Virus record (IMG/VR): IMGVR_UViG_2675903278_000002
Source: a virus
Taxonomy: Duplodnaviria; Heunggongvirae; Uroviricota; Caudoviricetes
Length of the DNA stretch: 64,000 nucleotides
Direction: 5' to 3' (one strand)
The position numbers were made by a program, and so were the translations under genes. Each line of letters begins with the position of its first letter. Positions within the stretch are counted from its first letter, which is position 1. Below, piece by piece: positions 21,303 to 43,221 of this stretch. The notes below the pieces were generated by a model. The model saw only the letters and a list, made by a program, of their open reading frames with translations, was not told the origin of the DNA and made no database searches.

Positions 21303-22403
21303 TCACACTGCGCGGAATGCGATTTCGCCAGGTATTACTTCACCTTGCCAATACATTTGGGCAGCAACGCGATCTGCGAGGTCACGATAAATAGCCGTAA
21401 ATTCGCTATCTGGACGACTAATAACGGTTGGTGTTCCGTTATCCAGATCTTCACGAAGAGAGATATGAAGTGGCATTTGGCCTAACAACTGCGTGTTGTA
21501 TTTCTCGGCCAGTTTCTGTGCGCCACCGGTGCCAAAAATTGGCTCGTGATGACCGCAGTTACTGCAAATATGCACACTCATGTTTTCGACGATACCCAGT
21601 ACCGGCACTTCGACTTTTTCGAACATCACAATGCCTTTCTTCGCATCGATCAGCGCGATGTCTTGCGGCGTAGTTACCACAACCGCACCAGTTACAGGAA
21701 TGTTCTGCGCCAGCGTCAACTGAATATCACCAGTGCCCGGCGGCATATCGAGAACGAGATAGTCCAGATCAGGCCATAGAGTTTCCTGCAACATCTGCAT
21801 CAGCGCCTTGCTGGCCATCGGTCCACGCCACACCATTGCATTGTCGTCGGTGACCAGATAACCAATAGAGTTGGTTGCCAGGCCATGAGACATGATAGGT
21901 GCCATGTGAGTACCGTCCGGTGAGGTTGGACGTTGGTTTTCCGCGCCCAGCATGGTTGGAATTGATGGACCATAGATATCGGCATCCAAAATACCAACTT
22001 TCGCACCTTCAGCAGCCAACGCCAGTGCCAGATTTACCGCCGTGGAGGATTTACCTACGCCGCCCTTGCCTGAGCTGACGGCGATAATGTTCTTAACGCC
22101 ATTAATGCCTGGTTGGTTTTTGACGCGCTTAAGCGTGGCAATGTTGTACGACAGCTTCCAGTCAATAGCCTTTGCGCCAGTGATACGGAGCAGATCACCA
22201 CTACATTGCTCTTTCAGGTCTTCAAAAGGCTTATTCCACACGAAAGGCATGATTAGTTCGACATGCAGTGTGTCATCCATCAACGCAACATGGTGTAACG
22301 CTTTAAGCGTAGTCAGGTTGTGTTTCAGGGTTGGGTGCTGAAAATTAGCCAGCGTACCGGCTACCATTGCTCTCAGGGCATCCGGCGATTTGGACTCGCT
22401 CAT
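21303..22403 (-). CDS. apbC: iron-sulfur cluster carrier ATPase ApbC/Mrp (host-type)
   Basis: 366 aa; deviant Walker A AVSSGKGGVGKSST, CSNCGHH motif; from recall, matches enterobacterial ApbC/Mrp closely along its length (not alignment-checked, unlike metG); divergent from metG as in E. coli. Confidence 0.95.
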   Translation of the reverse strand: MSESKSPDALRAMVAGTLANFQHPTLKHNLTTLKALHHVALMDDTLHVELIMPFVWNKPFEDLKEQCSGDLLRITGAKAIDWKLSYNIATLKRVKNQPGINGVKNIIAVSSGKGGVGKSSTAVNLALALAAEGAKVGILDADIYGPSIPTMLGAENQRPTSPDGTHMAPIMSHGLATNSIGYLVTDDNAMVWRGPMASKALMQMLQETLWPDLDYLVLDMPPGTGDIQLTLAQNIPVTGAVVVTTPQDIALIDAKKGIVMFEKVEVPVLGIVENMSVHICSNCGHHEPIFGTGGAQKLAEKYNTQLLGQMPLHISLREDLDNGTPTVISRPDSEFTAIYRDLADRVAAQMYWQGEVIPGEIAFRAV

Positions 22404-22560
22404 CCCGTCTCCTTTATTTTAATTTGCGCAATTGTCGCCTTGTAGTGTACTCCAGCTACGACATTTAATCATTTATGAGAAATGCTGTTATCACATGGCA
22501 GACATAAGGCCATTTTGTTACTATCAAGCCCCTTTTCACTACAAAGAAGTAATGCCTACT

Positions 22561-24594
22561 ATGACCCAAGTCGCGAAGAAAATTCTGGTGACGTGCGCGC
22601 TGCCGTACGCTAACGGCTCAATCCACCTCGGCCATATGCTGGAGCACATCCAGGCTGATGTCTGGGTTCGTTACCAGCGAATGCGCGGCCACGAGGTTAA
22701 TTTCATCTGTGCCGACGATGCCCACGGTACGCCGATCATGCTGAAAGCACAGCAGCTTGGTATCACACCGGAGCAGATGATTGGCGAAATGAGTCAGGAA
22801 CACCAGACTGATTTCGCAGGCTTTAACATCAGCTATGACAACTATCACTCGACGCACAGCGAAGAGAACCGTCAGTTGTCTGAGCTTATCTATACTCGCC
22901 TGAAAGAGAACGGTTTTATTAAAAACCGCACTATCTCTCAGTTGTACGACCCGGAAAAAGGCATGTTCCTGCCGGATCGTTTTGTAAAAGGCACCTGCCC
23001 GAAATGTAAAGCGCCAGATCAATACGGCGATAACTGTGAAGTCTGCGGCGCAACATATAGCCCGACTGAATTGATCGAGCCGAAATCGGTGGTTTCTGGC
23101 GCTACCCCGGTAATGCGTGATTCCGAACACTTCTTCTTTGATCTGCCTTCTTTCAGCGAAATGTTGCAGGCATGGACCCGCAGCGGCGCGTTGCAGGAGC
23201 AGGTGGCGAACAAAATGCAGGAATGGTTTGAATCCGGCCTGCAACAGTGGGATATCTCCCGAGATGCGCCTTACTTCGGTTTTGAAATTCCGAACGCGCC
23301 GGGCAAATATTTCTACGTCTGGCTGGACGCGCCGATTGGCTACATGGGTTCCTTCAAGAATCTGTGCGACAAGCGCGGCGATACCACCAGCTTCGATGAA
23401 TACTGGAAGAAAGACTCCACCGCCGAGCTGTACCACTTCATCGGTAAAGATATTGTTTACTTCCACAGCCTGTTCTGGCCTGCCATGCTGGAAGGCAGCA
23501 ACTTCCGCAAGCCGACCAACCTGTTTGTTCACGGCTATGTGACGGTGAACGGCGCGAAGATGTCCAAGTCTCGCGGCACCTTTATTAAAGCCAGCACCTG
23601 GCTGAATCATTTTGACGCCGACAGCCTGCGTTACTACTACACTGCGAAACTCTCTTCGCGCATTGATGATATCGATCTCAACCTGGAGGATTTCGTTCAG
23701 CGCGTGAATGCCGATATCGTGAACAAAGTGGTTAACCTGGCCTCCCGTAATGCAGGCTTTATCAACAAGCGTTTTGACGGCGTGCTGGCAAGCGAACTGG
23801 CTGACCCGCAACTGTACAAAACCTTTACTGATGCCGCTGAAGTGATTGGCGAAGCATGGGAAAGCCGCGAATTTGGTAAAGCTATCCGTGAAATCATGGC
23901 ATTGGCTGACCTGGCTAACCGCTATGTCGATGAACAGGCTCCGTGGGTGGTGGCGAAGCAGGAAGGACGCGATGCCGATCTGCAGGCGATTTGCTCTATG
24001 GGCATTAACCTGTTCCGCGTGCTGATGACGTACCTGAAGCCGGTACTGCCGAAACTGACTGAACGTGCAGAAGCATTCCTGAATACAGAACTGACCTGGG
24101 ATGGTATCCAGCAACCGCTGCTGGGCCATAAAGTAAATCCGTTCAAGGCACTGTATAACCGCATCGATATGAAGCAGGTTGAAGCACTGGTGGAAGCATC
24201 CAAAGAAGAAGTGAAAGCCACAGCCGCACCGGTAACTGGCCCACTGGCTGACGACCCGATTCAGGAAACTATCACCTTTGACGACTTCGCCAAAGTTGAC
24301 CTGCGCGTGGCGCTGATTGAAAACGCAGAGTTTGTAGAAGGTTCTGACAAACTGCTTCGCCTGACGCTGGATCTCGGTGGTGAAAAGCGTAATGTCTTCT
24401 CAGGCATCCGTTCCGCTTATCCAGATCCACAGGCACTGATTGGTCGTCACACCATTATGGTGGCTAACCTGGCACCACGTAAAATGCGCTTCGGTATCTC
24501 TGAAGGCATGGTGATGGCTGCTGGCCCCGGCGGGAAAGATATCTTCCTGTTAAGCCCGGATGCTGGTGCTAAACCTGGCCACCAGGTTAAGTAA
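22561..24594 (+). CDS. metG: methionyl-tRNA synthetase (host-type)
   Basis: Starts [31 protein letters not shown]..., KMSKS present, ends ...GAKPGHQVK; essentially the E. coli MetG sequence; track ORF 22432 begins upstream in frame, ATG 22561 is the conserved start. Confidence 0.96.
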
Positions 24595-34720: not shown

Positions 34721-36280
34721 CTAATCTCGTTTCAGAACTCCAAAATCGAATGCTCCATCAATAGGCAATACACCTTCTGCAAAGCCAGGTGTGGTGTCGA
34801 TGATGTGTTTTCGCTCATAAGAGTGAGACAACAGGTATTTGTTGCTAATGTCAATGAAATCAGTGATAAAACACACGTTTGCCTGATTTTTTTTGGCTCG
34901 TAAGCCACGACCGACACGCTGCCTCATTTCAACTTCTGCTTTTCCACCACCAGCCAGAATGACCGCACCAACGCTTGGCACATCAACACCGACATCCAGA
35001 ATAGTCGAGCCTATTAAAACATCTATTTCGCCAGACGCTAAACTGTTCAGCTTTGCTTGCCTTGTCGCCTGGTTCGATTCCCCATAGATGAAGTCAACTT
35101 TAAGACCTGACTCCTTCATCATCTCCATCAGGATTTGCCCGTGGCGTTTAAGACGAACCAGAGTCATGCAATTGAGAGAATGTTGCTTATAGAGCAATGC
35201 TTCGCGCACAATGGCCTCGTTACGTCCCAAATTATACACGATCCCCAACTGATAAGCCTTTTGGTAGGCTGTGCTCATACCTACTCTAAAATTAAGGTGT
35301 TTGTTGGCAAGTTCCGCCTTGATTCTGACCTCGTCTGGCTTGTAAGCAACTTTATGATAAAGGAAGTACGGTTTTGCCAGAATGCCTCGATCAATCAGGT
35401 ACTTTTCTGTGACTTTAATTTCAATTCGACCGGCCACAGCCATCAGACGCATGTTGGCTTCTGTAGAATCCTTCATGAACGGCGTGGCCGTAAGCGCCAG
35501 ACGATAGTCTGCGTTCACACATAATCTGGCAATGTCATAGAAATTAGAGCCTGAAGACTCATGCGCTTCTTCCAGAATAAGCAGAGACACACTTGAAAGG
35601 AAGCGTTTCACCAACTCCCGACGTTTGAGGTGGTAGCTTTTCTTATCTGGTGTTGCATCGCGTGGTGGTTCTTCGAGGAAACTTGCAAGAGTTTGAACTG
35701 TAGCGACGTTGATATGTCGTGATACCTGGAACTCACCCGAGCCAATGACTCCAACCTTTTGGTCTTTTAACCACGGTTCGCCATTTTCGGCGCGGTAGTC
35801 GATGGATCTCTGGAAGTTTTCGGCCATTTGAAACATCAGAACAGAGCGGGTTGTTAAAAATAATGTCATTCGACCGATACGTGCAGCTGCTTTGCAGGCA
35901 ACGTTAGATTTCCCGCCACCAGTAGCGATCTGCGCAATCATCATTCCCTCTCGAACCAGTGTTTCCACAGTCTGATCCTGATACGCATAATCAGGATTGT
36001 ATGGGAATGGGTTAACCGCCGGATTTGGTTTACCAAGCGCCGGGGCTTTGTCTTTGCGGATATGAACACATTTGATGCCCGCCTTGTTCAAGTTCGCCGC
36101 TACAGGCTTGGCAAAGCCAGCAGGGAACGAGTTTTTACTCCAGTTGAACATCGTGCTTGTGCCCTTCCAGTCGCCAGTCTCGACTTCGTAGCTCAACATT
36201 TGCTGCACCAGTTGCTTTACCTTGTCATCTGCGCCAGAAATAAGCGCATTTACTGCGTTAGATACAATCCGAACAGTCAT
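34721..36280 (-). CDS. SF2 DNA/RNA helicase (DEAD/DEAH-like)
   Basis: 519 aa; Walker A IATGGGKS, motif II LILEEAHE, C-terminal domain with QRVGRGLR arginine finger. Confidence 0.88.
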   Translation of the reverse strand: MTVRIVSNAVNALISGADDKVKQLVQQMLSYEVETGDWKGTSTMFNWSKNSFPAGFAKPVAANLNKAGIKCVHIRKDKAPALGKPNPAVNPFPYNPDYAYQDQTVETLVREGMMIAQIATGGGKSNVACKAAARIGRMTLFLTTRSVLMFQMAENFQRSIDYRAENGEPWLKDQKVGVIGSGEFQVSRHINVATVQTLASFLEEPPRDATPDKKSYHLKRRELVKRFLSSVSLLILEEAHESSGSNFYDIARLCVNADYRLALTATPFMKDSTEANMRLMAVAGRIEIKVTEKYLIDRGILAKPYFLYHKVAYKPDEVRIKAELANKHLNFRVGMSTAYQKAYQLGIVYNLGRNEAIVREALLYKQHSLNCMTLVRLKRHGQILMEMMKESGLKVDFIYGESNQATRQAKLNSLASGEIDVLIGSTILDVGVDVPSVGAVILAGGGKAEVEMRQRVGRGLRAKKNQANVCFITDFIDISNKYLLSHSYERKHIIDTTPGFAEGVLPIDGAFDFGVLKRD

Positions 36281-36322
36281 AAACCTCTTTCCTTAGTGCC
36301 TTTTGTATGTTATTTGGCTATT

Positions 36323-36347
36323 ATAATAAGTAAGTGATTACTTAGTG
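36323..36347. repeat. class-B palindrome in divergent intergenic region
   Basis: TAATAAGTAAGTGATTACTTAGTGG between helicase (-) and ParB-like (+) starts; overlaps a TATAAT hexamer. Confidence 0.55.
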
Positions 36348-37043
36348 GATTGTAGCAATAAAATGGATGTAAAAATCACGATTTTGCAGGTTGATGTTGC
36401 CAACCTTCGCCCGAATACCTGGAACACCAATTCGGTTGGTGCGCAGAATTTTGAAAAACTGAAAGGTTCTATCGAAAAATTGGGCTTTTTTAAGCCAATT
36501 TTGGCTCGTGAACTTGAAGATGGATTTTTTGAAATCCTCGGCGGTGAACATCGCTGGCGTGCTGCTATTGAGCAAGGAATTTCAACGGTTCCGGTGCTTT
36601 CTGTGGGCAAAATTAGCGATGTCGTAGCTAAACAGATGTCACTGGTGGACAACGAGCGATACGGTGAAGACGACCAAATCGCATTGCAACGCTTCATTGA
36701 AGAAATTCAGTCAGAACTTGACTATCAACTGTCTGAAATCGCCCCGTATGACGACGAAATCTCGATGGTTTTAGCAAAAGAGGCGGCAATCGACCTTGAA
36801 GCACTGGAGGCGTTGTCTCGTGGTAGTGATGAGCCTGTCGATACCGACAAACGAGAGAAAACCGAACGTGTGGGTGCGGAACATCAGACCATGCGCTTCA
36901 AAGTAACTTTCGATGCGTCAGATCGTGTTGCAGAAACCATAAAAAACATCATCAAAGAGCAGGCTATTAACACCGGTAATGAAATGGAGAACGCTGGTGA
37001 GGCTCTGGTGTGGCTGGTCGACTACTACAAGGAGCGTATGTAA
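36345..37043 (+). CDS. ParB-like nuclease domain protein
   Basis: 232 aa; ParB/Srx-like N-terminal motif FEILGGEHRWRAA; track start is GTG 36345, ATG at 36363 also possible. Confidence 0.8.
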   Translation: MDCSNKMDVKITILQVDVANLRPNTWNTNSVGAQNFEKLKGSIEKLGFFKPILARELEDGFFEILGGEHRWRAAIEQGISTVPVLSVGKISDVVAKQMSLVDNERYGEDDQIALQRFIEEIQSELDYQLSEIAPYDDEISMVLAKEAAIDLEALEALSRGSDEPVDTDKREKTERVGAEHQTMRFKVTFDASDRVAETIKNIIKEQAINTGNEMENAGEALVWLVDYYKERM

Positions 37044-37711
37044 TGACCAAAAAGTTTGAAATCGTATATCGCGACCCGGCAGATCTTATTCCCTATGAGA
37101 TGAATGCCAAAAAGCATGATGAACAGCAGATCAGAGATTTGGCCGCAGCCATTAAAAAGCGCGGATTTGACCAGCCAATTACGGTCGATAAGAACGACGT
37201 AATTATTACTGGCCACGGCCGCCGTGAGGCTGCAATTTTTGCTGGACTTGAGCGCGTACCGGTTATTGTTCGTGATGATCTGAGTGATGACGAGGTTCGT
37301 GCGAAGCGCCTTGAAGATAACCGACTTGCCAGCATTGATTACGATGCAATTAAGCTACAGAAAGAGCTTGAGTCGCTTGTTCTGGACGATATTGAGGTTT
37401 TCGGCTTTGAAGAGCGTGAGTTGAATGTTCTCGTTGGCAGTATGACAGAAGAAATGGACACCGACTCGCTAGTTATCGATCTTGGCGAAGAAACTAAACG
37501 ACAGAAGGATGAACACACCGAGATCAGTCGTGAAGTTGCAGCGGAAGAAGTACGTGTTGTCGACGTATTGGGCTTTAAAACGCTCCCTGCTGGCTCTGCC
37601 ATTGTTGTTGGTGATTTGCTTGCCCATATGGAAGAAATGACGGGAGAAAGCGGGGTAGACGCATTTGTGGCATATGCGGAGAAGATCTCTTCCGGGGAGA
37701 TGGCTGCATGA
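37043..37711 (+). CDS. ParB-like nuclease domain protein (second paralogue)
   Basis: ~222 aa from ATG overlapping previous stop; ParB-like ITGHGRREAA; acidic C-terminal half. Confidence 0.8.
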   Translation: MTKKFEIVYRDPADLIPYEMNAKKHDEQQIRDLAAAIKKRGFDQPITVDKNDVIITGHGRREAAIFAGLERVPVIVRDDLSDDEVRAKRLEDNRLASIDYDAIKLQKELESLVLDDIEVFGFEERELNVLVGSMTEEMDTDSLVIDLGEETKRQKDEHTEISREVAAEEVRVVDVLGFKTLPAGSAIVVGDLLAHMEEMTGESGVDAFVAYAEKISSGEMAA

Positions 37712-38373
37712 GCAAATACATCATCAACGTATCGTTTCAGACACGCGTAAATAAAACCACGCGCACGTTGGAAATCGCTGAGTCGTTCGGGCTTGGCCTG
37801 GACGAAAAAGAGTGGACGCTTTACGACAATCTGGAGCTGGAAGTGAAGCAGGGCGATGTGGTGTACATCACCGGCCAATCCGGTTCCGGCAAATCCGTTG
37901 TGCTGCGCGAGTTGCAACGACAGATGAAGGATGAAGGGCTGTCTGTAGCCTCCATCGATGATTTTACCTTCGATAATGAGGTTAACGTCATCGATCAGTT
38001 GGGCAAAACGACCAGTGATGCGCTTGGGTTGTTATCTATGGCTGGTCTGAACGATGCATATCTGTTTGTTCGCAAGCCTTCTGAAATGTCAGACGGCCAG
38101 AAATATCGTCTCAAGATTGCCAAACTGATTGAGTCAGGCGCTAAAGTATGGGCTGCTGACGAGTTCGGCGCTGTTCTCGACCGTGTAACCGCTCAGGTTG
38201 TGGCGTCTAACCTCCAGCGTGCCGCTCGAAAGGTTGGTGCGACGGTAATGGTGGCGACGACTCACGAAGACCTGAAGAACGCGCTGCGCCCTGATATGCA
38301 GATCACCAAGCACTACAAAGAACGCGTGAAGGTGGAATATCACAATGGTAGTCATGATGAGGTCCATTCATGA
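37708..38373 (+). CDS. ABC-type ATPase
   Basis: 221 aa; Walker A ITGQSGSGKS, signature-like MSDGQKYRLKIA, Walker B VWAADEF; coupled to ParB-like genes. Confidence 0.8.
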   Translation: MSKYIINVSFQTRVNKTTRTLEIAESFGLGLDEKEWTLYDNLELEVKQGDVVYITGQSGSGKSVVLRELQRQMKDEGLSVASIDDFTFDNEVNVIDQLGKTTSDALGLLSMAGLNDAYLFVRKPSEMSDGQKYRLKIAKLIESGAKVWAADEFGAVLDRVTAQVVASNLQRAARKVGATVMVATTHEDLKNALRPDMQITKHYKERVKVEYHNGSHDEVHS

Positions 38374-39260
38374 CGGACATCATCATTAAACGCTACCGCC
38401 CTGAAGAGTTTCCGCGTCATCTGGACTTTCTGGAGCGAATGACTGTTACAAAGGGAACTGTAGAGGACTGGCACGCTCTTAAGTCGCTTCACTACAAAAC
38501 AGACGGCAAACCTTTCGCGCCAACTTACTATCGCTGCGAACTTGATGACCGTCTGGTGGGCGTCGTGGTTATGGCTTACCCGAAACTACTGTTGGCACCT
38601 CGCCACCGCATGTTTCCTAAGTTGAAACCAACCACTAATACCACCGTGGCTAACCAGTACTGGGGTCGGTACGTGAATAACAACTTTGCGGTGATCAGTC
38701 GCTCAGTTGTGGATACTCAGTATCGTGGCGTAGGCGTCTCTTATAGAATGATTAACCTGGTTAGCAGGATGCATGACCGGCCAATCATTGAGATCCAGTC
38801 CTCGATGAGCAAATACAATCCCTTCGCCATGAAAGCAGGGTTTAAGTTCATCCGCCCTGAGCGACCGAAGAGCTATGAAAGTGCACTGCGTGTGTTCCAG
38901 CGCCATTTCCGCTCCGACCCGGGTGATAACGAGGCGATCGTCAAAGAGTTGTTCGCTATGAGCGAGTCTCGTCGTCGCCGTGCGCTGCGCGATTTGGTGG
39001 CGGACTACCATAAGAACAGTTCCCTGGCAAAAGCTGGGCGGAATCGTGGCACGACGATTCAGGACATTGCCGACAGTCTGGTGGACGAGGCCAGCATTGT
39101 GAAGCTGCTCAAGGACATTCACAACCTGAGCTTTACGTCTCCGTTGTATGGTGTGTACCGAAACCCTGACTTTGGCCGTCGACTGCCTGACACGCTGCCA
39201 CTGCTGGCATTCGACAAACAACCTTTGGATAAACCGTTAGAAATTGCTTTACCGGCATAA
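38370..39260 (+). CDS. hypothetical protein, possibly acetyltransferase-like
   Basis: 296 aa; overlaps previous stop; QYRGVGVSYRMINLV loosely resembles a GNAT acyl-CoA site; low confidence on function. Confidence 0.65.
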   Translation: MTDIIIKRYRPEEFPRHLDFLERMTVTKGTVEDWHALKSLHYKTDGKPFAPTYYRCELDDRLVGVVVMAYPKLLLAPRHRMFPKLKPTTNTTVANQYWGRYVNNNFAVISRSVVDTQYRGVGVSYRMINLVSRMHDRPIIEIQSSMSKYNPFAMKAGFKFIRPERPKSYESALRVFQRHFRSDPGDNEAIVKELFAMSESRRRRALRDLVADYHKNSSLAKAGRNRGTTIQDIADSLVDEASIVKLLKDIHNLSFTSPLYGVYRNPDFGRRLPDTLPLLAFDKQPLDKPLEIALPA

Positions 39261-39269
39261 GGATTTGCC

Positions 39270-39536
39270 ATGACGTTAACCGACAAACAAAAGGACATCA
39301 TCAAAACGCTCAATCTCGGTTATGAGCGAGGTCATCTACTTGACCTGGACGAATTGCTTGAAGTTTTGCCGTACAAGACAACCAAGCAAAGTATCCAGTT
39401 CTCAATTCGCGCTCTGATAAAAAAGGGGCTGGTGGAGAAAGGGCATACGCGCCAACGCAGTGACAATCGCTATCACCGCCGGACTCTTGGGTTAACCACT
39501 TTAGGTCGAGCCAAAGCGAAGTTACTGGTGATGTAA
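39270..39536 (+). CDS. small basic protein, possible DNA-binding
   Basis: 88 aa; lysine/arginine-rich with helix-turn-helix-like segment; immediately upstream of packaging genes. Confidence 0.6.
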   Translation: MTLTDKQKDIIKTLNLGYERGHLLDLDELLEVLPYKTTKQSIQFSIRALIKKGLVEKGHTRQRSDNRYHRRTLGLTTLGRAKAKLLVM

Positions 39537-39560
39537 TCGGTCTGGGAGCTTATTTAAAGA

Positions 39561-39616
39561 CCTGCATCTGTATATATAAATAATAAGTAACTTATTAAAT
39601 ATATACGGAAGCAGGC
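39561..39616. repeat. long AT-rich hairpin element, copy 2 of 2
   Basis: CCTGCATCTG ... CGGAAGCAGGC around AT-rich loop; homologous to element at 10075-10131; ~115 nt upstream of terminase small subunit. Confidence 0.7.
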
Positions 39617-39650
39617 TTCGTAAGACATGCCAGACCTAATTAAACACCCC

Positions 39651-39693
39651 AGAAAACAAGTTGGTTAGCAGATGCAGTAAACAAGTTGTTTTA
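39651..39693 (+). promoter_or_regulatory. tandem class-A palindromic motifs plus hairpin, upstream of packaging operon
   Basis: AGAAAACAAGTTGGTTA and GTAAACAAGTTGTTTTA ~10 nt apart, followed by AGAGCGC-ATGGAC-GCGCTCT hairpin. Confidence 0.6.
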
Positions 39694-39731
39694 GAGCGCA
39701 TGGACGCGCTCTGTGTGTTTTAGAGGGATCT

Positions 39732-40364
39732 ATGACGGTCGAAAAAGACGAGGTAAAAACTCGCCTGACACCAGCGGAGTGGGCCGAAGCTGAAGCCAAA
39801 TGGACGTCAGGCGAATATACACTCTCAAAGCTGGAGGAAGAGTACGGCATTCGTCGTGAAACACTCTCCAGACATTTCAAAAAGCGAGGATTAGAGAAAG
39901 GCGCGGACTCTGTTGGGAAGATGGTTCGTGAGTCTCTTAAATCTGACGCAGAGCTTCGCGCTAAAGCCCGTGCGGAAAAGATAGAAGAACGTCGTACACG
40001 TTATGACGGCTGGGCGTATGCGTTGGGGCAGATGGTGATGGTCGAAGTCACTACGGCCAAACGTGAGGGTAAGCCTTTAGGGGCGATTGAGGATTCTCTC
40101 AAGAGCTTACAGAGAGCCAGTAATACCCTTGCAAAATGCTTTGAAGTTTCGTCCAAAGCATTGGGCATGGATCATGCGGAAAATGACGAGGAAGAAATTC
40201 CGAACCTGGTATTTGGTGAGCTTACGCCTTCCCAGGTGGCGAAATTACGTCAGGAAGACGACGAGCCTGAAATCATCGATGACGAATTGCTTGAGACGTT
40301 GGAAGAAGAAGCTCTAAGCGAATTTGATGCGACAGATGATGGAAGTGAAGGGGAGGACGAATAA
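39732..40364 (+). CDS. terminase small subunit (putative)
   Basis: 210 aa; helical N-terminal region, highly acidic C-terminal tail; directly precedes and is coupled to large subunit. Confidence 0.7.
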   Translation: MTVEKDEVKTRLTPAEWAEAEAKWTSGEYTLSKLEEEYGIRRETLSRHFKKRGLEKGADSVGKMVRESLKSDAELRAKARAEKIEERRTRYDGWAYALGQMVMVEVTTAKREGKPLGAIEDSLKSLQRASNTLAKCFEVSSKALGMDHAENDEEEIPNLVFGELTPSQVAKLRQEDDEPEIIDDELLETLEEEALSEFDATDDGSEGEDE

Positions 40365-41620
40365 TGGCAATCCCGTCCTCGCTCAGTCTTGTGCAACTGC
40401 ATTCTGGACAGATGAAAGTCTTCCAGTCTCCGCATCGATTTAAAGTTGTTTGTGCTGGTCGACGCTGGGGAAAATCCCGGTTGTCGATCTCCACTATTAT
40501 TCGTGCGGCGGCAAAGGAAAAAAAGCAAAGAGTCTGGTATGTCGCTCCTACTTACCAGATGGCTCGCCAGATTTTGTGGGACGATCTACAGGAAGTTCTG
40601 CCTCGTAAGTGGGTTAGGAAAAAGAACGACACCACGATGACAATCGTGTTGAAGAACGGTTCGGAGATCGCCCTCAAAGGTGCTGATAAGCCTGACACTC
40701 TGCGCGGCGTAGCGTTGCATTTTGTAGTGCTTGATGAATTTCAGGATATGAAGGCTGACACCTGGTACAAGGTGTTACGACCTACTCTTTCATCGACACG
40801 CGGCGGTGCACTGATCATTGGTACGCCAAAAGGCTTCTCGGAATTTCACAAACTGTGGACTATAGGCCAGAACGTAGAGCTGCAAACAAAGGGACAGTGG
40901 AAGAGCTGGCAGTTTGTAACTGCCGATTCTCCGTTTGTACCTACGGCGGAAATTGAAGCTGCTAAGAACGATATGGACCCGAAATCGTTCGCTCAGGAGT
41001 ACCTGGCGAGCTTTGAGAACATGTCCGGGCGCGTTTACTACCCGTTCGATCGTAACGTGCATGTAAAACCGCTTCAGTTCAACCCTCGGTTGCCTATATG
41101 GGTAGGGCAGGACTTCAACATTGACCCGATGTCTTCAGTAATTTTGCAACCTCAGCCAAATGGTGAGCTATGGGCAATTGATGAATTGGTGCTCTTTTCC
41201 TCTAACACGGCAGAGGTTTGTGATGAGCTTGAGAGACGCTTCTGGCGCTGGAAATCACAGATAACGGTATTTCCAGATCCGGCAGGTGCTTATCGCCAAC
41301 ATGCTCGCGGGGAGTCTGACGTCGACATATTCAAAGAGAAGGGATTCTTACGTGTCGATTATTCGAAAAAGCACCCGCCAATTGCGGATCGTGTTAATGC
41401 TGTTAACCGAATGCTGATGACCGCATCTGGAGATATCCGGCTGTATATCGATCCGAAGTGCAAGCATTTGATTGATTCACTGGAAAAAGTCATCTACAAG
41501 CCTGGAACACGAGATATGGATAAGACAGGTGGCATTGAGCATAGTGCAGACGCATTGGGCTATCCAGTACATCGTAGGTATCCAGTCAAAAACCGTGTTA
41601 TTCTTGGTGGTTCTCGATAG
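40364..41620 (+). CDS. terminase large subunit
   Basis: 418 aa; Walker A VVCAGRRWGKS, Walker B VVLDEFQD, C-terminal nuclease-like acidic motifs (GQDFNIDP, FPDPAG). Confidence 0.85.
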   Translation: MAIPSSLSLVQLHSGQMKVFQSPHRFKVVCAGRRWGKSRLSISTIIRAAAKEKKQRVWYVAPTYQMARQILWDDLQEVLPRKWVRKKNDTTMTIVLKNGSEIALKGADKPDTLRGVALHFVVLDEFQDMKADTWYKVLRPTLSSTRGGALIIGTPKGFSEFHKLWTIGQNVELQTKGQWKSWQFVTADSPFVPTAEIEAAKNDMDPKSFAQEYLASFENMSGRVYYPFDRNVHVKPLQFNPRLPIWVGQDFNIDPMSSVILQPQPNGELWAIDELVLFSSNTAEVCDELERRFWRWKSQITVFPDPAGAYRQHARGESDVDIFKEKGFLRVDYSKKHPPIADRVNAVNRMLMTASGDIRLYIDPKCKHLIDSLEKVIYKPGTRDMDKTGGIEHSADALGYPVHRRYPVKNRVILGGSR

Positions 41621-41635
41621 GTAAGTAATTATCTA
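41618..41635. repeat. class-B palindrome
   Basis: TAGGTAAGTAATTATCTA overlapping the terminase stop, before portal gene. Confidence 0.55.
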
Positions 41636-41646
41636 AGGTTATTCAA

Positions 41647-43221
41647 ATGGAATTGAACGACAAACAAATTAAGGATCTGGTGGCGCGACGCCACCCGGAA
41701 TACGAAAAGAAAAAAGAACATTGGGACTTCCTCGCCAGCACTTACGCTGGCGGGCGTGGTTGGTTTACAGACAATATCTTTCGTTACTTTAAAGAGGGAG
41801 ATCAGGAGTTTAAGGAGCGAGTTGAACGTGCTTATCGCTTCAACCACACTCGTGAGGTGGTAAACCTCATCAACAAATATCTCTTTAAAGAAGACATTCA
41901 TAGAAATATCGAAGAGGCACCAGAGCAGATCCGCAATTTCTGGAAACGTGCGACTCGCCAGAATGCCTCTATTGACTCATTTATGGCCGCTATTGATTTG
42001 CAGTCGTCTATTTACGGTCGCATATGGGTTGTTGTCGATAGCACGATGAGTGGTGATGTTGAGTCAGTAGCTGACGAGAAAAAGAAAGATGCTCGCGCCT
42101 ACGCCTACTGGATTTCACCTCAGCAAATGCTGGATGTGGCATGGGACGACGACGGGAATATGTTGTGGGCGTTAATTGTGGAAGTCGCTCGTGATGACGC
42201 AGATCCTTTTACTTCTACAGGTCAGGAATACCAACGTTATCGTCTGTGGACACAAAACGAGTGGTATCTGTTCCGTGAGGAAGTGAAGAAGGGCGCTGGT
42301 GGAGCAGGTCGCCGTCAGGCAAAAGTTATTTTAGAGGATAGCGGTGAGCATAATCTCGGCGTAGTTCCTGTGTTTCCTGTTGATTGTATTGGAGAAAGTG
42401 AATCACCGTATTTCAGCCCATCGTTGATCGATGATATCGCTTATCTTGATCGTGCGGTTGCAAACTATCTGTCAAACCTTGATGCCATTATTCAGGATCA
42501 GACATTTAGCCAGTTGGCTATACCGGTACAGTCGCTTTTACCTGGTGATGAAAACCACACTAAAGTGCTTGAAATGGGCACAAAGCGAGTATTCACCTAC
42601 GATTCTGAAGGTGGAAACCAGCCGTTTTATCTGTCACCAGACCCGAAACAAGCTCAGATGATCATCACTACGATTAAGACGGTGATTAACGAAATCTACC
42701 ATTCAGTTGGTGTAGCTGGTGAGCGAACGAAGCAGGACAACGCACAGGGAATCGATAATTCATCTGGTGCCGCAAAAATGTATGACTTCCAGCGTGTAAA
42801 TAGCTTGCTTGTCACAAAAGCAGAGCGTCTGGAAAGGGCTGAACGCCAAATCATGCTACTGGTTGCGAAATGGATGGGGGTAGATCTGGACGAAGACCAC
42901 TCTTTAATTGCGTATCCAGAAAGTTTCGATATTCGTGGCCTTACTGATGAATTTTCTGTTGCCGAGAAACTGTCATTACTTCAGGCACCGGACTCTGTAC
43001 GTCGTCACCAGATGGAAATGCTTATTGAGAAGATTTTCCCGAACATTACTGAGGCGATGAAAAAGGAATTTGATAAAGATCTCTTGAATTTTCCTCCAAA
43101 AAATGATCTAAATACCCTTGAAAATAAGTCAGTACTTACTTATGATCGTGGTGCAGCCCAAGAAAGCGGGCAAGATCAACCCCGAGGGAATGGGGACTCA
43201 TCTACTCAAGAGAACGAGTGA
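41647..43221 (+). CDS. portal protein (putative)
   Basis: 524 aa; assignment by size and position between terminase and scaffold/capsid. Confidence 0.7.
   Translation: MELNDKQIKDLVARRHPEYEKKKEHWDFLASTYAGGRGWFTDNIFRYFKEGDQEFKERVERAYRFNHTREVVNLINKYLFKEDIHRNIEEAPEQIRNFWKRATRQNASIDSFMAAIDLQSSIYGRIWVVVDSTMSGDVESVADEKKKDARAYAYWISPQQMLDVAWDDDGNMLWALIVEVARDDADPFTSTGQEYQRYRLWTQNEWYLFREEVKKGAGGAGRRQAKVILEDSGEHNLGVVPVFPVDCIGESESPYFSPSLIDDIAYLDRAVANYLSNLDAIIQDQTFSQLAIPVQSLLPGDENHTKVLEMGTKRVFTYDSEGGNQPFYLSPDPKQAQMIITTIKTVINEIYHSVGVAGERTKQDNAQGIDNSSGAAKMYDFQRVNSLLVTKAERLERAERQIMLLVAKWMGVDLDEDHSLIAYPESFDIRGLTDEFSVAEKLSLLQAPDSVRRHQMEMLIEKIFPNITEAMKKEFDKDLLNFPPKNDLNTLENKSVLTYDRGAAQESGQDQPRGNGDSSTQENE

Follow-up and report, generated by a model that had tools for sequence, protein, structure and literature searches.

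A ParB-ABC-GNAT module upstream of the terminase genes of an SSU5-like phage-plasmid is a candidate DNA-targeted acyltransferase

Introduction

The 64,000-nucleotide stretch of the tailed virus record IMGVR_UViG_2675903278_000002 (Caudoviricetes), here called the window, is an SSU5-like phage-plasmid, and we analyzed the gene module that precedes its terminase genes. The module encodes two ParB-like proteins (ParB1 and ParB2), an ATP-binding cassette (ABC) ATPase, a GNAT-fold protein (GNATx) and a small winged-helix-like protein. We propose, with a probability of roughly 0.4, that these five genes form a DNA-targeted, nucleotide-gated acyltransferase machine, the chemistry of which is predicted. 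Very probably the module is one functional DNA-associated unit with a role other than partition. The predicted chemistry would most likely acylate phage DNA or DNA-bound proteins near packaging; that the acceptor is a DNA base is our tentative choice between the two. The architecture has been catalogued before and its function predicted computationally, and the cluster is a member of that predicted system.

Results and Discussion

A translationally coupled operon of five genes

The 2.9-kb module region of the window is 99.1% identical to that of Escherichia phage Cyrano and 85.5% identical to that of Salmonella phage SSU5. Hosts of SSU5-like members are E. coli K-12, Salmonella LT2 and Klebsiella. 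A first-pass annotation, made from the sequence alone, had described a cluster of four open reading frames (ORFs) at 36345-39260. All four are present in the ORF listing at these positions, but the cluster has a fifth member, an 88-amino-acid (aa) winged-helix gene:

36345-37043, + strand: ParB1, GTG start (the Cyrano record starts at the ATG at 36363)
37043-37711, + strand: ParB2, from the ATG at 37043 used in the Cyrano and SSU5 annotation (the start in the ORF list is the GTG at 37010)
37708-38373, + strand: ABC ATPase, a soluble single cassette
38370-39260, + strand: GNATx, 296 aa, GNAT-fold acyl-CoA transferase-like
39270-39536, + strand: winged-helix-like protein, 88 aa, 9 nt after GNATx, fifth gene of the operon

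Stop and start codons overlap at the ParB1/ParB2 (TAATG), ParB2/ABC (ATGA) and ABC/GNATx (ATGA) junctions, which supports translational coupling of the genes, as had been proposed. Predicted promoters and terminators in 36000-40000 were no more numerous than in shuffled sequence.

ABC ATPase and GNAT-fold protein together make up one enzyme

The ATPase matched ABC_tran with 50.1 bits (cutoff 25, E 6e-13), while its CbiA/ParA score of 19.0 fell below the cutoff of 25.4. This agrees with its earlier description as ABC-type and not ParA-type; the protein is no canonical ParA. Walker A (GQSGSGKS, 56-63), the signature (MSDGQ, 127-131), Walker B (VWAADE, 147-152) and the H-loop (TH, 185-186) are invariant in 27 ABC sequences, and the protein has a family-specific N-terminal segment (..AE.FGLGL..). 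The complete motif set is shared with the nucleotide-binding domains of ABC transporters, which are also its best PDB and NCBIfam matches; no NCBIfam model matched at its cutoff, all scores being far below. The window ATPase differs from these domains in that it has no membrane partner and its relatives are joined to GNAT, ParB or PolB. No hydrophobic or membrane segment was found in any operon protein, nor any permease partner, and an ABC transporter was rejected because a membrane partner is missing and relatives join the cassette to soluble domains. Where the records say 'ABC transporter', 'ABC transporter ATP-binding subunit' or 'DNA methyltransferase', the name has been carried over on the strength of domain similarity. 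A protein-database search with the ABC protein returned close SSU5 relatives only.

The 296-aa protein, previously described as of unknown fold, is a GNAT acyl-CoA transferase with an intact coenzyme A (CoA)-binding motif and a helical insert. Its GNAT fold comprises residues ~20-165 and C-terminal strands at 259-277, and the insert lies at ~169-254. The CoA pyrophosphate motif [RQ]-x-x-G-x-[GA] is present as R119-G-V-G122-V-S124, in which R and G are invariant and position 124 is S, A or G; the wider family has R-G-I-G-L-G. With the Pfam GNAT models GNATx itself stayed under the gathering score (Acetyltransf_10, 14.4 bits, cutoff 23.6), and some fused homologues exceeded the Acetyltransf_1 cutoff of 20.7 (P0356, 25.6 bits; P0274, 21.5 bits). 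Searching IMG/VR with the 296-aa family returned close SSU5 relatives only, a BFVD search found no close homologue and a scan with P0305 gave no matches. Nor did we find membership of the Mom family beyond the generic GNAT fold. GNATx is presumed to be the catalytic subunit of the module.

The connection between these two proteins is evident from gene fusions. When 1.8 billion proteins were searched with a profile of the 296-aa family, 891 representatives matched; in many of these, 450-510 aa long, ABC_tran precedes GNAT. Hundreds of proteins from viruses and archaeal proviruses have the two joined in this order. Both domains were present in all of 80 IMG/VR loci (80/80) and fused in nearly all. 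When one fused archaeal protein was used as query, 2028 proteins were matched at E<=1e-5, and most of the 120 listed are ~470-510 aa long. The ABC ATPase and the GNAT-fold protein are thus two halves of a single enzyme, which in many viruses is one polypeptide. The matches of the same search included at least five ParB-ABC-GNATx triple fusions of 626-635 aa, whose N-termini matched the SSU5-lineage ParB1 model (E 2e-15 to 1.5e-13) and carry the motif ADGEHR as in ParB1; in some elements, ParB-like domains are accordingly physically joined to the ABC-GNAT enzyme. A further fusion, PolB-ABC-GNATx (1260 aa, with a family-B DNA polymerase), lies within a viral replication module. Since such Rosetta-stone fusions join them, the module genes work together. 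In Joint Genome Institute (JGI) and phage records the window proteins and their homologues are named 'ABC-type ATPase with/fused to a predicted acetyltransferase domain', which we take to be COG2401.

Insertions were seen in two genes of relatives. The ABC cassette of the ABC-GNAT homologue P0285 holds an intein with a LAGLIDADG domain, and TerL is broken by ~0.9-1.3 kb in some relatives (L007 9947-12190; L021 9892-12481; L numbers denote loci of relatives). This suggests insertion of selfish elements, of a type usual in essential DNA-handling genes.

ParB1 and ParB2 are paralogous proteins of the ParB/Srx superfamily

Both ParB proteins scored above the Pfam ParB_N threshold of 26.3 bits (ParB1 49.9 bits, E 3e-13; ParB2 35.0 bits, E 1.5e-8), and their N-domains are 33% identical over 116 aa (E 5e-10), which bears out their description as paralogues. 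ParB1 consists of a ParB/Srx domain (~residues 10-105) and a helical C-terminal half of ~120 aa. In an AlphaFold2 model from a shallow alignment its N-domain was predicted with moderate confidence and its C-half with a predicted local distance difference test score below 50. The phage families matched were phrog_723 for ParB1 (E 2e-79) and phrog_930 for ParB2 (E 1e-112). PDB matches to both proteins were Spo0J/ParB/Noc, with the ParB1 motif aligned as GERRxRAA against GEHRWRAA. The nucleotide-binding motif GxxRxxA (G67EHRWRA in ParB1; G57HGRREA, that is GHGRREA, in ParB2) is kept in orthologues, as is the [ED]N-type motif that follows it (D-N-E-R and D-N-R, respectively). The 17 aligned ParB1 orthologues conserve GGEHR, DN.RYG and a C-terminal NAG.AL. 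Judged by sequence, both proteins belong to the ParB/Srx (ParB-CTPase fold) superfamily and are predicted to bind a nucleoside triphosphate (NTP). Neither had a Pfam match to a helix-turn-helix (HTH) or ParB C-terminal domain, although the C-halves may conceal a DNA-binding domain.

Outside its own family ParB2 is nearest to the ParB domains fused to phage DNA methyltransferases. It matched phrog_498, 'DNA methyltransferase', at E 5e-32 in the ParB part only, and PADLOC MTase_II at E 3e-17. ParB-methyltransferase fusions exist in prophages and ParB-acetyltransferase fusions in bacteria (PMC12704722). The former have the ParB domain most similar to ParB2 of the window; they differ in that the window proteins have no methyltransferase domain.

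Several short proteins (~170-230 aa) carry a methyltransferase name in public records. The ParB2 profile covers nearly the whole length of gp158 of Pseudomonas phage nickie (L210 4322-5014, E 6e-67), named as 'DNA methyltransferase'/'DNA modification methylase', so there is no space for a catalytic domain. Rhizobium phage RHEph10 gp083 (L211 3677-4339) has a methyltransferase-type name while its own record notes a ParB-like nuclease, and a Streptococcus Javan511 protein (L215 2875-3393) is named likewise. The name appears to spread to short ParB-like proteins from the ParB-methyltransferase fusion families.

The small winged-helix protein

The 88-aa product of the fifth gene matched phrog_900 (E 2e-45) and, weakly, the winged HTH (wHTH) families LexA_DNA_bind, Sta1 and Lrs14. 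Its gene was detected directly after GNATx in 19 of 28 related loci, and positional equivalents occur in alphaproteobacterial loci and as nickie gp154. We regard the protein as a candidate sequence-specific DNA-binding or regulatory subunit.

The module is not a partition system

SSU5-like elements are phage-plasmids, and ParB-fold proteins act classically in segregation and, as KorB, in regulation (PMC13229309). A screening study even takes a 'parB' gene as SSU5 marker; it does not mention the cluster. One could therefore imagine a plasmid partition or maintenance system, or a KorB-like silencer of the prophage state, in which the ABC ATPase replaces ParA. Indeed, the module ParBs share with ParABS the ParB/Srx N-domain and its GxxRxxA-type motif. 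However, no HTH was detected in them, the ParA-binding motif [LFI]G[KR]G[LFI] was not found, and matches to the chromosomal parS consensus in the window were not above chance. Canonical ParABS was rejected, as neither a deviant-Walker-A ParA adjacent to the genes nor an HTH, ParA-binding peptide or parS was found; the first-pass annotation had likewise seen no standard partition system here.

Cyrano and SSU5 also have a separate ParA with a small downstream partner gene annotated elsewhere in the genome. A tblastn search with this ParA as query gave no Rhizobium, Stenotrophomonas or nickie-type Pseudomonas phage among the matches listed or in the organism tally, yet nickie, RHEph10 and Stenotrophomonas phages have the module. 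The distribution of the module is thus uncoupled from the ParA of the element: SSU5 relatives in which no match to the plasmid ParA was seen still have the module, which therefore does not serve partition. Moreover, ABC-GNAT, sometimes fused to ParB, is also found in integrated archaeal proviruses, and a partition role would leave the GNAT partner unexplained. We consider partition or silencing very improbable, and plasmid-like maintenance is disfavored among the four roles that had been offered.

A core module beside terminase and replication genes

Around the module the window has the following context genes, of which TerS-like, TerL and portal genes span 39732-43221 downstream:

34721-36280, - strand: DEAD/ResIII helicase (Pfam ResIII, DEAD, Helicase_C; 'UvsW helicase' in the Cyrano record)
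39537-39731: non-coding gap of 195 nt between the module and the terminase genes
39732-40364, + strand: TerS-like DNA-binding protein (phrog_867)
40364-41620, + strand: large terminase TerL (Terminase_6N/6C, phrog_2)

The full order, helicase (minus strand), ParB1, ParB2, ABC, GNATx, (wHTH), TerS, TerL, portal, is kept in 26 loci from genome collections, save three that are truncated by contig ends. These loci range from Yersinia, Kluyvera and Xenorhabdus to Sphingomonas, Phyllobacterium, Magnetospirillum and Paracoccus, often on contigs of ~100-118 kb. The isolated phages nickie and RHEph10 keep the same arrangement, and GNATx homologues occur also in Stenotrophomonas and Xanthomonas phages with similar-sized genomes. 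The divergent helicase is a conserved neighbor of the module, as it has the same position in all related loci that reach that far upstream (25/25), and in nickie and RHEph10. ParB-methyltransferase fusions of prophages typically sit upstream of packaging genes, as the module does.

Among more distant viruses the ABC-GNAT gene directly adjoins TerL in half of the 80 IMG/VR loci (40/80), and in several checked loci with no TerL match it stands at the border of the structural module, behind the tail genes. The genomic copies that we looked up are in mobile elements: two archaeal copies lie in head-tail proviruses, and a ParB-ABC-GNAT fusion lies in an integrase-bounded element carrying PolB. In one contig the ABC-GNATx gene is directly upstream of the gene for the DNA polymerase III alpha subunit (Pol III alpha), and some copies belong to replication modules, beside Pol III alpha or DnaB. 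Gordonia phage Axumite has a ParB-like gp1, ABC-GNAT gp2, (a methyltransferase) and the terminase; Rhodococcus/Gordonia phage Jace has a ParB-like gp85, ABC-GNAT gp86 and (a PanD-like gene), with terS ~3 kb further on; Leptospira phage LE3 has a ParB-like gp16 and ABC-GNAT gp17, with TerL four genes on. Streptococcus Javan511 has the same gene order, its first gene being only putatively ParB-like. The order ParB-like, ABC-GNAT, terminase thus recurs in unrelated phages of Proteobacteria, Actinobacteria, Firmicutes and Spirochaetes, and the module adjoins terminase or replication genes in many unrelated tailed viruses, bacterial as well as archaeal. Phages of Gram-positive bacteria also have ABC-GNAT in its fused form.

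In alphaproteobacterial relatives the identities are 55% for ABC, 56% for TerL, 42% for GNATx, 37-38% for the ParBs and 31% for TerS. ABC is as conserved as TerL, and the module evolves as slowly as TerL, which is the behavior of core genes and not of arms-race genes. In a large tailed-phage lineage (~105-120 kb) and in many archaeal proviruses the module belongs to the core genes. Given this wide spread and core-gene status, its role is probably basic to their biology.

The conservation bears on anti-defence, another of the roles suggested at first. Here the GNAT domain would inactivate, by acetylation, an immune protein of the host or a small molecule that is toxic or used in signalling, with ABC and ParB as regulators. 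Such activities have parallels, since phage GNATs with anti-defence or host-takeover roles exist, e.g. AcrVA5. PMC7824862 cites a further example, Rac of phiKMV-like phages. The ABC/GNATx junction also holds accessory genes in relatives, including Tad2-like anti-Thoeris genes. However, TerL-like slow evolution and synteny from Enterobacteriaceae to Alphaproteobacteria are unlike arms-race genes, GNATx had no match to PADLOC or anti-defence families, and the fusions with ParB and PolB point to DNA. We find anti-defence improbable.

Relation to known and predicted systems

A system of a GNAT and an ABC ATPase was predicted in silico to acylate a DNA base (Iyer et al. 2013 NAR 41:7635), as cited in PMC7824862, where Tenacibaculum phage pT24 is given as an example and the acyl transfer to a DNA base is presented as prediction only. 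Like that system, the window module is phage-borne and couples an ABC cassette to a GNAT in the same order, and the pT24 protein matched the SSU5-lineage ABC profile (E 1.4e-25) and shares the motifs HHY and [QR]G.G.G. It differs in having separate coupled genes, two ParB paralogues and a wHTH protein.

A second parallel concerns the ParB proteins. A phage ParB-like protein with no DNA-binding domain activates a T-dioxygenase specifically on double-stranded DNA, and such 5mYOX/ParB clusters co-occur with terminases (PMC13229309). Common to both is an NTP-binding ParB-like protein with a C-terminal domain, located beside a post-replicative DNA-modifying enzyme and near terminases; the partner in the window is ABC-GNAT instead of an iron/2-oxoglutarate-dependent dioxygenase, and there are two ParB paralogues. 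A predicted dependence of ABC-GNAT activity on ParB is supported by the gene coupling and the ParB-ABC-GNATx fusions.

GNATx also has its fold in common with Mu Mom, which makes an acyl-type modification at N6 of DNA adenine, and with TmcA/NAT10, which act on RNA cytidine; TmcA is a precedent for a P-loop ATPase coupled to a nucleic-acid-acylating GNAT. GNATx is not a member of either family at the sequence level, and the TmcA ATPase is helicase-like, not ABC.

No experimental work on the cluster was found in the searchable literature, which speaks against its being the well-characterised packaging-accessory set of a known phage family. Neither did we find there a description of the split SSU5 form with two ParBs and a wHTH protein, or of the ParB-ABC-GNAT and PolB-ABC-GNAT fusions and the breadth of the terminase linkage; the 2013 source prediction may hold part of both.

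A model for DNA-targeted acyl transfer

In our model, ParB1 and ParB2 would be NTP-gated, clamp-like activators that keep the enzyme on double-stranded phage DNA, and the small winged-helix protein would possibly give site specificity. ATP-driven dimerisation of the ABC cassette would open, expose or present the acceptor, and the GNAT domain would use acyl-CoA to acylate a nucleobase in the replicated phage genome, before or during packaging. The reaction would be comparable to that of Mom on adenine and of the ATPase-coupled TmcA on RNA cytidine. The likely benefit would be a packaged genome shielded from host nucleases, or DNA marked for packaging.

A nucleobase acceptor is favored by four observations. 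Phage ParB-like proteins with no DNA-binding domain activate a post-replicative DNA-modifying enzyme specifically on dsDNA, in clusters that often lie near terminases (PMC13229309). Fusion of a ParB domain to a DNA methyltransferase is recurrent in prophages, and fusion to an acetyltransferase occurs in bacteria (PMC12704722). Small-molecule tailoring enzymes, typical of hypermodification pathways, flank the module in other lineages. Finally, the pT24 protein, example of the system predicted to acylate a DNA base, matches the ABC profile and shares the motifs named above. The kinship of ParB2 with phage DNA-methyltransferase ParB domains, the conserved CoA motif and the terminase linkage add to this. 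Of the four roles proposed at the outset, DNA modification is hence the best supported.

Several points weigh against the model. We found no report in the searchable literature of a modified base in SSU5-like phages, the sequence reveals neither acyl donor nor acceptor, and the SSU5-type operon has no tailoring enzymes. ParB-like genes were present in only one of the 80 metagenomic viral loci. In structure GNATx resembles Mom and TmcA no more closely than it does amine or protein acetyltransferases. Furthermore, at E<0.01 the GNATx profiles missed the GNAT half of both the pT24 and the Axumite protein, so it is by the ABC half and short motifs that the module is identified with the published system. 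Finally, an ABC-GNATx fusion to a TFIIB repeat suits a protein or chromatin target at least equally well.

The last point leads to an alternative in which the same ParB/ABC-gated machine acts on phage DNA but acetylates DNA-bound proteins. Candidate targets would be nucleoid proteins of the host, the small terminase, the portal or proteins destined for packaging, and the DNA would be cleared or prepared for packaging, replication or transcription. The majority of characterised GNATs have amines or proteins as their acetylation targets, and so do most of the top structural matches. Fusion to PolB, TFIIB and ParB and a place beside TerL or Pol III alpha would suit a DNA-tracking machine, archaeal proviruses place the module at the edge of the structural module, and core-gene-like conservation suits a morphogenetic role. 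On the other hand, no candidate target is identifiable, the small-molecule enzyme neighbors in other lineages are more typical of base hypermodification, and those ParB partners for which there is a documented precedent modify DNA (PMC13229309, PMC12704722). We therefore hold a protein target to be unlikely, if the strongest of the alternatives, and prefer acylation of a DNA base.

Accessory genes, the downstream gap and other features

Tailoring-type enzymes follow ABC-GNAT in other lineages: Amidoligase_2 with a GGACT/AIG2-like cyclotransferase, a PanD-like aspartate decarboxylase, a PurN-like formyltransferase and a methyltransferase. A Heliorestis prophage, for example, has the order ABC-GNAT, amidoligase, gamma-glutamyl cyclotransferase-like, TerL, portal. 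The differing neighbors may define different chemistries on the same ABC-GNAT core. Loci with small-molecule enzymes are:

L120 8874-10696
L203 11534-13338
L214 4595-5020
L217 4661-5134
L213 1805-2452

The ABC/GNATx junction (38370-38373 in the window) is an insertion hotspot in relatives. It holds an 84-aa ORF in SSU5, ORFs of 182-189 aa in Enterobacterales relatives and, in others, genes for a HAD/PNKP-type phosphatase, a BTLCP transglutaminase-like peptidase or Tad2-like (DUF2829) anti-Thoeris proteins. In the viral contig L119, ~3.6 kb with five ORFs (one Pfam methyltransferase, four with no Pfam match) separate the ABC and GNATx halves. Junction inserts are located at:

L002 7994-8248
L006 7368-7916
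L008 7439-8008
L015 7112-7573
L019 7327-7914
L020 6976-7284
L211 5393-5695

Alphaproteobacterial relatives have an extra ORF of ~60 aa, Cys-rich and zinc-ribbon-like, between ParB1 and ParB2, where nickie has it too, and another of ~125-145 aa between ParB2 and ABC. Both gave no Pfam match and are absent from the window. Their positions are:

L015 5250-5441 and 6109-6483 (equivalents in L019, L020, L022 and L023)
L210 4168-4329
L211 3505-3687 and 4336-4755

The 195-nt gap between the module and the terminase genes contains an AT-rich imperfect palindrome of ~55 nt (39561-39615, center ~39589), 17-nt direct repeats (CAGAAAACAAGTTGGTT / CAGTAAACAAGTTGTTT) at 39650-39691 and a GC hairpin with a T-run at 39692-39713. 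The linear GenBank records of Cyrano and SSU5 both stop at the equivalent of ~39598, within the palindrome. Possibly, the gap is a cos/pac or regulatory site, or the record ends are a mere convention.

Elsewhere in the window (21303-24594), the gene for a 366-aa Mrp/ApbC-like P-loop protein ('MinD' in Cyrano) is divergent from that for a full-length methionyl-tRNA synthetase. This mrp-metG pair looks like captured bacterial genes in a phage-plasmid. The 'MinD' protein was rejected as a ParA partner, being an Mrp/ApbC-like protein beside metG and not a ParA.

Implications

The full form of our proposal, a new acyl-type (e.g. acetyl or aminoacyl) base modification on double-stranded phage DNA made by an ABC engine with ParB clamps, is a little more doubtful than the DNA-targeted acyltransferase itself. 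Our analysis corrects the names 'ABC transporter', 'DNA methyltransferase' and 'ParB partition protein', which are widely but wrongly given to these genes, and as phages of E. coli, Salmonella and Klebsiella carry the module, the 2013 prediction is open to standard genetics and mass spectrometry. If the proposal is true, the module would be the first DNA-modifying enzyme powered by an ABC ATPase, and would add a second class to the DNA modifications that ParB activates. The catalogue of phage genome modifications would gain a new chemistry and an enzyme of new design, in which an ATP-gated ABC dimer and NTP-gated ParB clamps work with a GNAT. Possible consequences would be evasion of restriction or CRISPR, effects on sequencing and cloning, and tools for DNA labelling. 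Such a modification would be spread across a very wide range of bacterial and archaeal tailed viruses, including the SSU5-like phage-plasmids that are common in clinical E. coli, Salmonella and Klebsiella.

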